Assembly (NCBI GenBank): GCA_963666515.2
Contig: OY762897.2
Span: forward strand, 4,512,001-4,576,000
Reading direction: 5' to 3'
From: Candidatus Binatia bacterium
GTDB taxonomy: Bacteria > Desulfobacterota > Binatia > UBA9968 > JAJDTQ01
DNA length: 64,000 nucleotides
Translations under genes and position numbers: made by a program
The notes under the pieces: model-generated
Told to the model about the DNA's origin: nothing
The model's database searches: none
The model's input: the letters and a program-made list of their open reading frames with translations, nothing else
Shown here: one piece after another, positions 60,441 through 62,869 of the stretch
Position numbering within the stretch: position 1 is the first letter of the stretch
Layout of the letters: the number at the start of each line of letters is the position of its first letter

Positions 60441-61313
60441 ATGCCAAAACTTGACGGCGATGGGAACTTGGCAACGAAGCCGGTATTGCCGTTCCTCAAA
60501 TGGCCAGGTGGTAAACGGTGGCTCGTTCCCATCCTACTGACAACTATTCAGCCGACGAAGTTTAAGACGTATTACGAGCCATTTCTCGGTGGTGGTGCGT
60601 TCTTTTTCGCGCTGAATCCCGCAAGTGCTGTTCTTTCAGATGTTAACTCGGACCTAATTAACACCTACCGACAAGTCAGGTACCGTCCTTCCGTCTTGAT
60701 TCGTCAACTCCAAATGTTACCCGTGACAAGGCAGACCTACGAGTCACAGCGCAGACACTCGCCCAAGCGATCTCTCGACCGAGCAGTCCGTTTCCTGTAT
60801 TTGAACCGCACCGCTTTCGGTGGTATCCATCGCCTTAACCAGAGGGGCGAATTCAACGTCCCGTTTGGCGGCGGCGAGCGAACTCCGAAACCCCTTTGGC
60901 AGTCTGGTTTGTTACAAAGAGCCGCACGAGCTCTTCGATCAAGCACCCTTAAAGTTTGCGACTTTGAGCTCGCGATTTCTGAAGCTGATTGTGGCGATCT
61001 GGTCTACTGCGATCCAACGTATACTGTCGCGCACAACAACAACGGCTTCGTTCGATACAACGAGAACAATTTTTCCTGGGCGGATCAGCGGCGACTTGCC
61101 AAGTGCTGTCGTCAGGCGTCGCGAAGGGGTGCGACGGTCATCGTCAGTAACGCGGCTAGTCCGGATGTTCTTGAGCTATTCGATCCCCCACGGCATTTTA
61201 CTGTGAGTCGATCTAGCAACCTCTGTCCCAGAGTAGAGTATCGGCGTGCAACAGAGGAATACTTGTTCGTTTTCTCCTCGGACACGACAGCCCGAGTTGG
61301 ATCGACCGAGTGA
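60441..61313 (+). CDS. Dam-family (D12 class) DNA adenine methyltransferase with variant DPTY motif
   Basis: LKWPGGKRWL, YYEPFLGGGA, SDVNSDLIN, FLYLNRTAF.G...N..G.FNVPFG and VYCDPTY motifs. Confidence 0.9.
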   Translation: MPKLDGDGNLATKPVLPFLKWPGGKRWLVPILLTTIQPTKFKTYYEPFLGGGAFFFALNPASAVLSDVNSDLINTYRQVRYRPSVLIRQLQMLPVTRQTYESQRRHSPKRSLDRAVRFLYLNRTAFGGIHRLNQRGEFNVPFGGGERTPKPLWQSGLLQRAARALRSSTLKVCDFELAISEADCGDLVYCDPTYTVAHNNNGFVRYNENNFSWADQRRLAKCCRQASRRGATVIVSNAASPDVLELFDPPRHFTVSRSSNLCPRVEYRRATEEYLFVFSSDTTARVGSTE

Positions 61314-62869
61314 GCTTGACGATGAAGAGCGAGTTTCTAGTTGTGGCCAAGAAGCTCATGGAGAGTGAGAGGCACCCGATGTCGGCTCGAGAGTTGGTTA
61401 AACTGGGAATGGATCGGCAACTCTTCTCGGATAAGATCGCGGGAGAAACTCCTCACCAAACGATGAAGGCCAAGTTGAGTGTTCACATCCGCCGGTTGGG
61501 TGAAAACAGTCTCTTCATCCGTACAGAACCAGGACGGTTCTTTCTGCGACACCTACTTGATAGTAACAGGGAACCGTTTGACGCCAAACCGATCGCACCT
61601 GTCGCGAGCACAGAGCGTGTCTGGGTTTACCGAACCACGGAACTCGACGGGCTAACGACATGGCAGGGGTTGTCGTCAGCTTGGAAGAAGGTAACCCTTG
61701 CCATGTTTTCTACGCTTCGGTGTGATGTTCGAGAGCGCCTTGAGGTTGAGGAAGACAACGATTACACACAGCTTCTGACATATGTCTTGGTCACAAGAGG
61801 TGAGGCCGTTTTGGCATACAGGCGAGGGACCTACAACCGAACTGAACGATATCTGAGAGGGTCGTTTTGCGTCGGTTTTGGGGGTCATGTGATAGAGGGC
61901 GACTTTGATCTCTTTCATGCGGGAGTTGAAGGGATACTTGAGAGTGCATCACGGGAGTTAATGGAGGAGCTGTCTCTTCCACCAACCGACATCGGACGAC
62001 TACGGCGACACGATGACTTGAAGATTGTAGGGATCATCAACGACGATTCTTCGGAGGTGGGCAGACGGCATCTAGCGTTCGTCGTCAACTACGAGGTTAG
62101 CGGTGATAGGTACTGGGACCGTCCCGAGAGAGGGGAGAAGGCGGTCACACAGTTACACTGGATTTCCACCACCGGAACGGCTCAGGTTTCCTTGTGGAAC
62201 TTTGAATACTGGTCACAGCTTTGTCTCCGGCAGTTCAGGCCACGTTTGGTGCGGGAGCGTGCAGCATACCGGCTACTCCGGCGGCGGTCACTGCGGCCTC
62301 CGCACATCTTGTGCATGATTGGCCCGGTTGGCAGCGGGAAGACGATCGCCACAGAGGTCTTGAGAAAGGACTTTGGTTACCGTGAGATCAATTCGGGGAA
62401 GGTCCTAGCAGGTATACTCAAGATTAAGCCGGTATCTGCCGCTCGTAGGCGACAGTTTCAACAGCGGGCGTGGCAATTCATCTCGCAGGAGAGTGGTCCC
62501 ATGCAACTTGCGAAGAGGATCGTCGAGATCGCAAATGGTTTGAACTCGGACAGAATCGTCGTCGATGGAATACGACAAGGACGCACTGTCGAGTCATTGA
62601 AGTTCCTCCTTGGAAGTAGACGACTTGGAGTTGTATTCGTGCAGACGCCTGTGGATTTGGCCTTCAAGTTTTTCGTCGATCGTTTTCCAGAGAATGCGAC
62701 GATGGCCGACTTCTTGGCTGCTAGAGACGCACTGGTCGAACAAGAAGTCGAAGAACTCATCTCAAAGGCCGACGCGGTCCTGTACAACTGGACCGGAACC
62801 CCTCAATATCGTGAAACCATTCGCGCCATGATGAGACAACTCGGAGTTTCCCGGGGGATTGGACGATGA
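61310..62869 (+). CDS. HARE-HTH + NUDIX phosphoesterase + P-loop nucleotide kinase fusion
   Basis: aa 5-80 PMSARELV...GETPHQTMKAKL...FIRTEPGRF (HARE-HTH); YRRG...GFGGHV...RELMEEL...GIINDD..EVGRRH...EYWSQ (NUDIX); GPVGSGKT...VDGIR...KADAVLYN (NMP/dephospho-CoA kinase-like). Confidence 0.8.
   Translation: MSLTMKSEFLVVAKKLMESERHPMSARELVKLGMDRQLFSDKIAGETPHQTMKAKLSVHIRRLGENSLFIRTEPGRFFLRHLLDSNREPFDAKPIAPVASTERVWVYRTTELDGLTTWQGLSSAWKKVTLAMFSTLRCDVRERLEVEEDNDYTQLLTYVLVTRGEAVLAYRRGTYNRTERYLRGSFCVGFGGHVIEGDFDLFHAGVEGILESASRELMEELSLPPTDIGRLRRHDDLKIVGIINDDSSEVGRRHLAFVVNYEVSGDRYWDRPERGEKAVTQLHWISTTGTAQVSLWNFEYWSQLCLRQFRPRLVRERAAYRLLRRRSLRPPHILCMIGPVGSGKTIATEVLRKDFGYREINSGKVLAGILKIKPVSAARRRQFQQRAWQFISQESGPMQLAKRIVEIANGLNSDRIVVDGIRQGRTVESLKFLLGSRRLGVVFVQTPVDLAFKFFVDRFPENATMADFLAARDALVEQEVEELISKADAVLYNWTGTPQYRETIRAMMRQLGVSRGIGR

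Follow-up and report, generated by a model that had tools for sequence, protein, structure and literature searches.

A HARE-HTH, NUDIX-like and kinase-like protein as a candidate upstream component of a Kongming-type cassette in a Binatia bacterium

In a 64,000-nucleotide stretch of the genome of a Candidatus Binatia bacterium (contig OY762897.2, positions 4,512,001 to 4,576,000 of the forward strand; hereafter the window, numbered from its first letter), a gene near the end encodes a protein, here called HNK, in which a HARE-HTH winged helix is followed by a divergent NUDIX-like domain and by a P-loop domain resembling nucleoside monophosphate (NMP) kinases. Since this gene is fixed in a cassette whose last two genes resemble those of KomB and KomC of the Kongming anti-phage system, HNK is a likely signal handler. 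On balance it seems probable that HNK is the upstream component (i.e. the sensor and signal-handling part) of a Kongming variant, in which it would probably make, edit or gate a nucleotide alarm signal.

The cassette and its KomC-KomB-like effector genes

Kongming, as described in bioRxiv 10.1101/2024.12.20.629578 and PMC13454610, consists of an adenosine deaminase (KomA), a dead HAM1 protein (KomB) and a SIR2 protein (KomC). KomA deaminates dAMP, after which a phage deoxynucleoside monophosphate (dNMP) kinase and the nucleoside-diphosphate kinase (NDK) of the host raise the product to deoxyinosine triphosphate (dITP), and the binding of dITP to dead KomB remodels the KomBC filament to an active NADase, by which infection is aborted. 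In the preprint, a 'defensive HAM1' is one in which His replaces the acidic residue of catalysis (KomB H65) and which keeps its binding residues. The genes compared with this system are listed here (aa, amino acids; SAM, S-adenosylmethionine; L002 is the same genome's locus, read on beyond the window end).

60441..61313, plus strand: D12-class (Dam-type) N6-adenine DNA methyltransferase, first cassette gene (PF02086 E 2.4e-40; PADLOC MTase_II E 6.8e-69)
61310..62869, plus strand: HNK (HARE-HTH / NUDIX-like / NMP-kinase-like protein), by its 519-codon open reading frame (ORF), motifs and homologues
62866..63489, plus strand: class I SAM methyltransferase of the small-molecule (TehB/NodS-like) type (Pfam TehB 3.4e-15, Methyltransf_25 5.8e-13; PDB TehB 4dq0 9e-12)
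63476..64000, plus strand: KomC-like SIR2 NADase gene, cut by the window end (SIR2_2, PF13289, E 2.1e-29)
L002 5477-6304, plus strand: the full SIR2 gene, 275 aa, ending at window-equivalent 64303 (read past the window end)
Window-equivalent 64307-64963 (L002 6308-6964), plus strand: KomB-like Ham1 gene, 218 aa, beyond the window (PF01725 E 3.5e-15)

The SIR2 protein matches KomC chain 8zsf_D with E 1.8e-38 (residues 5-258 against 2-246 of 264), followed by a second KomC-like chain and, far behind, ThsA (8e-15). Ham1 in turn matches KomB chain 8zsg_V with E 1.4e-22 and a second KomB-like chain with 6.9e-23, housekeeping inosine triphosphatases being well behind. At the column of KomB H65, Ham1 reads VEH as against VED in the M. 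jannaschii enzyme, and this His81 (i.e. the 'dead' catalytic acidic position) is present in 43 of 43 sequences, as are T13, K18 and E21. In SIR2, N120, H158 and D206 are invariant in all 52 sequences, the last two being the equivalents of KomC H146 and D194. Matches that span under 85% of the query do not enter these alignments (nor those of the SAM methyltransferase and Dam), so that a divergent Ham1 clade, described below, is excluded from them. Because SIR2 and Ham1 match KomC and KomB and the diagnostic residues are kept, the effector half of the cassette is, judged by homology, a KomBC module. An earlier note on the window lacked this context, i.e. a SIR2 gene followed, just past the window end, by a dead Ham1 gene that together match KomC-KomB. 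The pairwise distances of SIR2 and Ham1 also show the strongest correlation among the cassette genes (rho 0.79), which deserves little weight, shared descent being uncorrected.

The ligand pocket of Ham1 differs from that of KomB in the main clade, where Ser (41 of 43) and Tyr (42 of 43) align with KomB N9 and Q141, Q141 being described in the Kongming papers as the residue that reads O6 of hypoxanthine. Five loci (L045, L049, L070, L076 and L084) carry a second SIR2-Ham1 pair with 30-39% identity to that of the window (e.g. the Ham1 gene at L045 4364-4927), and this divergent clade has Asn and Phe-Gln-Trp as in KomB, where the main clade has Ser and Phe-Tyr-Trp; the divergent pair appears to be a replacement of the effector inside an otherwise similar cassette. 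As proof of a new ligand, the change of Gln to Tyr in the pocket is weakened by these five loci.

The cassette was followed across 84 loci, of which four stem from species genomes (three Bryobacterales metagenome-assembled genomes (MAGs) and one Sericytochromatia MAG) and the others from 80 of 209 metagenomic relatives. Seven duplicates (L008, L025, L028, L065, L068, L075 and L080), and also L087, were left out of locus counts, and 77 loci are non-duplicate. By tblastn, the SAM methyltransferase was found in 74 of the 84 loci, SIR2 in 65, Ham1 in 59 and Dam in 56, most misses falling at contig ends. With at least 2.2 kb of sequence downstream, the methyltransferase, SIR2 and Ham1 were present without exception (44 of 44 loci), and all five genes were found in 34 of the 40 loci with both flanks. 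Where at least 1 kb of upstream sequence was available (58 loci), tblastn detected the D12 gene in 47, which becomes 50 when three divergent D12 genes directly upstream of HNK (L012, L043 and L078) are counted by Pfam; L047 and L062 were left out of this Pfam check for an alternative D12 gene. In one locus (L041 6721-8158) an insertion of about 1.4 kb separates the methyltransferase from SIR2.

Among the best 150 representatives, HNK is fused to a C-terminal class I SAM methyltransferase domain in all eight relatives of 668-753 aa, which means that some lineages make the two as a single polypeptide. One such protein (P0197) was used to look for the genomic surroundings of the fusion, but matched plasmids via its methyltransferase domain only, and a cluster look-up contributed no more than two names.

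In the Binatia genome the genes run, all on the plus strand, in the order VapB-like, PIN, D12, HNK, TehB/NodS-like methyltransferase, SIR2_2, Ham1, a 106-aa ORF without family and an AAA_14/DUF4143 ATPase. The cassette genes are tightly packed: the D12 stop and the HNK GTG share GTGA, the HNK stop and the methyltransferase start share ATGA, the methyltransferase and SIR2 genes overlap by 14 bp, and Ham1 starts 3 bp past the SIR2 stop. A promoter and terminator scan found neither terminator-like sites on the plus strand inside the cassette nor a convincing cassette promoter, and the public sequencing runs listed are four DNA runs of one study, with no RNA runs. Within the methyltransferase the SAM motif is conserved. 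Outside that motif H109, C110, H150, H160, H184, H191 and H193 are invariant and C12 and C14 nearly so; these Cys and His residues may form a metal site or belong to a substrate pocket.

The HNK protein, its domains and its relatives

The frame at 61310-62869 (plus strand) is unbroken over its 519 codons, and the motifs quoted in the earlier note were recovered in its translation (GFGGH, SRELMEEL, GIINDDSSEVGRRH, GPVGSGKT and VVDGIRQ). The ORF thus stands as it had been proposed, but GTG 61310 is doubtful as its start, because homologues in a 34-member alignment begin at MKSEFL, i.e. at ATG 61322 of the window, which is probably the true start. A database copy of HNK (P0002, 496 aa) is called from Met24, which would cut the first HARE-HTH helix (window 61310-61381). 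HNK is present as a single copy in the genome. Its three domains were assigned as follows.

61343..61552 (residues 12-81), plus strand: HARE-HTH winged-helix domain (PF05066)
61676..62233 (residues ~123-308), plus strand: divergent NUDIX-like domain of the TM1382 / phrog_8902 type (profile comparisons)
62285..62824 (residues ~326-505), plus strand: P-loop NMP-kinase-like domain (profile matches, Walker A, DGxR)

The architecture that the earlier note had read from the letters (HARE-HTH, NUDIX and P-loop kinase) is borne out, with PF05066 above its cut-off and the other two domains recognised by profile comparison. The HARE-HTH assignment can be regarded as solid (PF05066 E 4.6e-9, with 37 bits where the cut-off is 25.9), and the same family is precomputed for most HNK homologues. 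The NUDIX-like and NMP-kinase-like assignments are supported by the profile comparisons on which they rest. For the NUDIX-like domain, TM1382 (PDB 3e57) is matched by the single sequence (phmmer, E 1.2e-8) as well as by family profiles (8.1e-12 and 2.7e-10), and it was the sole match of the domain profile in the PDB up to E 10; phrog_8902 matches residues 123-308 with E 1.1e-23. Moreover, when seven PF00293 domains from this genome were compared with it by hhalign, the probability came to 89.6% (E 1.9e-6) and REL.EE of HNK fell on the RE..EE of the NUDIX box, about 8 inserted residues lying upstream, and in two of the fused relatives PF00293 is above its cut-off (P0203, 24.8 bits; P0228, 24.7 bits). 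The kinase-domain profile matches the AdkA-like 3lw7 and SSO1041 (3h0k) with E 1e-11 over the whole domain (positions 7-182 of 188 in the case of 3lw7), and further adenylate kinase 1 (E 3e-5) and UMP-CMP kinase (E 0.016). A phage dNMP-kinase family was considered as the source of this domain and set aside, there being no significant match to a PHROG kinase.

The residues that are invariant in 34 members of the family lie in all three domains. They comprise the HARE-HTH core (T47, P48, T51, K55, L56, S57 and R61), GFGGH (G189-H193), R215, E216, E219 and E220, NDDS (N244-S247), EYWSQLC, Walker A residues S342, G343 and K344, D419-G420-x-R422 and YNW; R380 and R458 are the putative NMP-site and LID arginines. 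Nor is the architecture a chance fusion, since it is conserved in relatives: among 8000 candidates scored, 329 proteins match HNK at E<=1e-3, and many of the best 120 matches listed are full-length with 46-77% identity. Two relatives (P0179 and P0165) have tandem HARE-HTH stretches before the NUDIX and kinase domains.

Family and defence collections have little to say about HNK: no NCBIfam family came close to its cut-off, and in PADLOC the sole match was a P-loop-level one to IetA (E 5.6e-4). Among viral contigs, only one of 21 pattern matches encodes an HNK relative, and that as a 47-residue piece, so in this collection HNK is not phage-borne. A tblastn search of plasmids and phages with the HNK of the window returned no record covering at least 80% of the query.

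Parts of HNK do occur in other settings. A stand-alone relative of the NUDIX-like domain lies in a thyA-DHFR-NUDIX arrangement on a Bacillus velezensis plasmid (L091 3539-5567), and Geobacillus phage GR1 (L092 3137-5368) has a dUTPase followed further on by NUDIX, thioredoxin and guanylate kinase. Because such relatives adjoin genes of deoxynucleotide metabolism, they point to deoxynucleotides as the substrate of the HNK domain. Furthermore, 308-aa HARE-HTH-NUDIX-like proteins (~25% identity to HNK residues 1-310) are encoded by genes that overlap a downstream CHAT-protease gene on a Leisingera plasmid (L088 5992-8600) and an Agrobacterium Ti plasmid (L089 6013-8630), the surroundings of the latter holding TIR, caspase and more CHAT genes. 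A two-domain relative in Sulfitobacter has an insertion sequence (IS) element downstream instead, and a match in Polymorphobacter is partial. The pairing with a CHAT protease suggests that HARE-HTH-NUDIX is a reusable sensor module that can be wired to differing effectors.

A mobile island at a variable hotspot

The island that carries the cassette was acquired horizontally and occupies a site of variable content. The cassette genes have a guanine-plus-cytosine (GC) content of ~53%, against ~69% in the flanking genome, the drop following purM and purN. In a congener with an empty site (G411) the purN flank and the right flank are only ~160 bp apart, which sets the island at ~7 kb (L002 ~1616-8576, window-equivalent ~59615-66575). 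The hotspot extends between purN and a minus-strand methyltransferase gene, and in other congeners it holds other cargo, of ~1.9 kb (G403), ~2.9 kb (G415), ~9 kb (G413) and ~16.7 kb (G406). Besides the cassette, the island carries the following genes.

59672..59992, plus strand: VapB-like antitoxin ORF, 106 aa, island cargo (weak MazE-like Pfam match, E 0.019)
59992..60417, plus strand: PIN-domain (VapC-like) toxin ORF, island cargo (PF01850 E 3.3e-18)
Window 59672-60417 and L002 7371-8546: VapBC and AAA_14/DUF4143 flanks (in L003, 2221-2951 and 7730-8005)

VapB and PIN are next to the cassette in only one of the 84 loci (L003), and are thus not conserved cassette members; tblastn found each of them once, AAA_14 twice and the 106-aa ORF in none. 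All of the island, with VapBC and AAA_14 at 73-90% identity, recurs in L003, and among the examined loci no other has these flanking genes. It seems that the ~7-kb block moved as one piece between this lineage and that of L003. In the flanks of 23 loci (138 of 197 ORFs), DUF499, integrases and DndB occur four times each and HEPN_Swt1 and ResIII three times each, besides restriction endonuclease, NADAR-DarT1, AbiEii, HipA and conjugation proteins. No deaminase family, as would be expected of KomA (PF00962), was found by Pfam among the island ORFs or within the 25 commonest families of these 138 flank ORFs.

These surroundings bear on whether HNK belongs to defence at all. It might be a housekeeping regulator of nucleotide metabolism (either a Nudix protein with a winged helix, or an enzyme that sanitises the nucleotide pool) that came to lie beside defence genes by chance. 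Regulators in which a Nudix domain is joined to a winged helix exist, for example NrtR, which is connected with NAD and ADP-ribose and whose Nudix motif is usually degenerate, and JGI labels some HNK relatives 'predicted NUDIX family phosphoesterase/dephospho-CoA kinase'. However, HNK was never seen without the cassette in the 44 loci with enough sequence, it was not found among 18 congeners of this bacterium, 12 genomes from its order and 400 genomes sampled from its phylum, and it sits in a low-GC island at a variable hotspot, which together make a housekeeping role very improbable indeed. The earlier note had allowed that the architecture might turn out to be that of a common housekeeping enzyme outside defence contexts; instead, HNK is tied to a mobile cassette of defence type.

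Proposed role and comparison with known systems

In the role that we propose, HNK and the SAM methyltransferase would take the place of KomA. The NUDIX domain would turn a (deoxy)nucleoside triphosphate, (d)NTP, into the monophosphate, (d)NMP (or, alternatively, clear stray signal), after which the SAM methyltransferase would modify the base of the (d)NMP, the NMP-kinase domain would bring the product back up to the diphosphate, and host NDK would yield a modified (d)NTP to be sensed by dead Ham1. Since this kinase is encoded by the host, a phage kinase would not have to act as trigger. The likeliest input would be HARE-HTH together with Dam, which may read the methylation state or the presence of foreign DNA, or may autoregulate the operon. 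That HARE-HTH would read DNA methylation fits both the Dam partner and the literature, in which HARE-HTH is linked to N6-adenine methyltransferases and the HARE-HTH domain of ASXL1 selectively bound DNA with N6-methyladenine (6mA) in pull-downs.

The direction of the NUDIX and kinase chemistry is a guess. The earlier note took the two as opposing activities and proposed a signal writer/eraser switch or a nucleotide-pool sensor, an idea with which our observations are compatible. Since the adjacent methyltransferase is fused to HNK in distant relatives, a productive path from NTP via NMP and methyl-NMP to methyl-NDP is plausible, and we consider it at least as likely as a switch of opposing activities.

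Several observations weigh against a signal-making role for HNK. In HNK itself both enzymatic domains are below their Pfam cut-offs, i.e. 14.5 bits against 21.1 for NUDIX (PF00293) and 20 bits against 27 for the kinase (AAA_17), with ADK also below; even in the relative P0203, ADK reaches 23.7 bits against a cut-off of 26.8. The canonical NUDIX box is Gx5Ex7REUxEExGU, and in this family the Glu seven residues before R215 (i.e. the first Glu of the box) varies, while the upstream Gly/Glu part is displaced by the insertion. With this Glu unconserved and the box interrupted, NUDIX hydrolysis is not assured. A chain that holds both NUDIX and kinase might just as well run a futile or regulatory cycle. 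The permuted loci keep the methyltransferase with SIR2-Ham1 and apart from HNK: in L039, L069 and L077 Dam still lies directly upstream of HNK and methyltransferase-SIR2-Ham1 stays together, and in L062 the same two blocks are divergent. Because the divergent Ham1 clade of five loci, which lies beside the same HNK and methyltransferase, keeps Asn and Gln of KomB, a new signal is not implied, and dITP could still be the one in use despite the missing deaminase. The D12 methyltransferase was not found in 8 of the 58 loci with sufficient upstream sequence, and gating by methylation therefore cannot be universal. Finally, PADLOC (2023) gave no meaningful match to HNK or Ham1.

Some of the same evidence would also suit a different division of labour, in which HNK would act as a safety device and negative regulator: by breaking down stray activating nucleotide (dITP or the like), its NUDIX domain would keep the dead Ham1-SIR2 effector silent in healthy cells, and its HARE-HTH domain would repress the operon, until infection inactivates or titrates HNK. 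RE..EE of the NUDIX-like domain is invariant, and the divergent Ham1 proteins beside HNK retain the residues with which KomB reads dITP. As described for Kongming, KomB cannot hydrolyse its own ligand, which would make a clearing enzyme useful, and phages counter the system with a nucleotide-degrading enzyme, i.e. hydrolysis turns it off. In addition, the HARE-HTH-NUDIX relatives pair with a CHAT protease in the absence of kinase or methyltransferase. Such a device would, however, leave no job for the invariant kinase or for the ever-present SAM methyltransferase (fused to HNK in all eight long relatives), and no encoded source of the signal would remain, so that we regard it as unlikely.

The Dam-type gene directly before HNK in most loci raises the question whether the cassette is rather a DNA-modification or restriction-like system, in which the joint product of Dam, the SAM methyltransferase and HNK would be a modified base, created or maintained in DNA or the dNTP pool, a mark to be read by HARE-HTH and the absence of which would set off SIR2-Ham1. 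The literature ties HARE-HTH to N6-adenine restriction-modification (R-M) systems and to 6mA binding, and genes of the R-M or Dnd type are frequent among the neighbours. On the other hand, the second methyltransferase is like the small-molecule enzymes TehB and NodS and unlike DNA methyltransferases, the conserved set has no nuclease and lacks a detected D12 gene in eight loci, and SIR2 and Ham1 match a nucleotide-activated NADase. Taken together, this makes such a system quite improbable.

Returning to HNK as the upstream part of a Kongming variant, the boldest form of the proposal would be a self-contained, methylation-gated nucleotide alarm. Dam would mark self DNA, HARE-HTH would detect invading DNA that lacks the mark, HNK and the methyltransferase would turn an ordinary purine (d)NTP, by way of its monophosphate, into a methylated purine (d)NTP, and the dead Ham1 with its Tyr pocket would fire the SIR2 NADase. 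As a whole this chain of steps is distinctly unlikely, but if true, methylated purine (d)NTPs would add a new class to the immune second messengers, with no phage enzyme needed, and self/non-self marking in the style of R-M would be joined to abortive infection via a base-methylated nucleotide. That a base-modified nucleotide can serve as immune signal has a precedent in the dITP described for Kongming.

More generally, the cassette is a widespread and tightly conserved candidate for a KomBC variant with another signal, with 209 metagenomic stretches and, in a cluster-level profile search of 1.84 billion representatives (50% clusters), 220 representatives at E<=1e-30. It opens three questions, namely which immune nucleotides exist beyond dITP, how a system of the Kongming type is triggered without a phage kinase, and whether HARE-HTH reads DNA methylation in bacteria. 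These are testable here because the signal machinery (NUDIX, kinase and methyltransferase) is host-encoded and coupled to a DNA-binding domain, HARE-HTH, and to Dam.

In the literature searched, which included neither Aravind and Iyer 2012 (PMC3272235) nor the supplement of the Kongming work, no description of a HARE-HTH-NUDIX-kinase protein was found, nor did 'HARE-HTH' and 'Nudix' occur together; a purine NTP pyrophosphatase with SIR2 and phage led to the Kongming work only. The words 'Nudix', 'HTH' and 'kinase domain' have no occurrence in the main text of the Kongming preprint (10.1101/2024.12.20.629578). According to that preprint, KomA is often replaced by other nucleotide enzymes, including an 'NTPase' and a 'SAM-dependent methyltransferase', and the cassette may be one of these candidate KomBC types; in their Nat Commun paper, the Kongming authors expect other KomBC signals.

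Of the known systems, Kongming is the nearest. The cassette shares with it the adjacent SIR2 and Ham1 genes matching KomC and KomB, His at the acidic site of Ham1, the conserved KomC His and D194, and horizontal mobility in a defence-island context. It differs from it in lacking KomA, in having HNK, a SAM methyltransferase and usually Dam, with a host-encoded kinase, and in the Ser and Tyr of the main-clade Ham1 in place of KomB N9 and Q141. Because the KomBC effector is shared but KomA is missing, we file the cassette as a putative Kongming variant and not as a member. With other SIR2 NADase systems (Thoeris ThsA, DSR1/2, SIR2-HerA and SIR2-pAgo) it has in common a SIR2_2 protein with PADLOC matches to ThsA, Dsr and LmuA, and a presumed outcome of NAD depletion and abortive infection; its SIR2 is, however, closest to KomC, and the partner is a dead Ham1 and not SLOG, HerA or Argonaute.

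The individual domains of HNK have known counterparts too, each in a different setting. The HARE-HTH domain is of the same Pfam family as that of N6-adenine R-M systems and ASXL1, and shares with the former the coupling to an N6-adenine methyltransferase, but in HNK it is fused to nucleotide-metabolising domains and not to a nuclease or chromatin module. TM1382-type NUDIX proteins (3e57; phrog_8902) and their phage and plasmid relatives are of the same GGH ... RE..EE ... NDDS ... RxH subtype and have nucleotide-metabolism neighbours in phages; they are single-domain proteins of ~200 aa, whereas in HNK a DNA-binding domain precedes the NUDIX-like domain and a kinase follows it. NrtR, in which the domains come in the opposite order, has a winged helix-turn-helix of another family and no kinase, and differs further from HNK in that RE..EE of the latter is invariant. 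The HARE-HTH-NUDIX and CHAT modules of alphaproteobacterial plasmids correspond to the first two domains of HNK and likewise overlap a downstream effector gene, but they are without kinase, methyltransferase and SIR2-Ham1, and their effector is a CHAT (caspase-like) protease.

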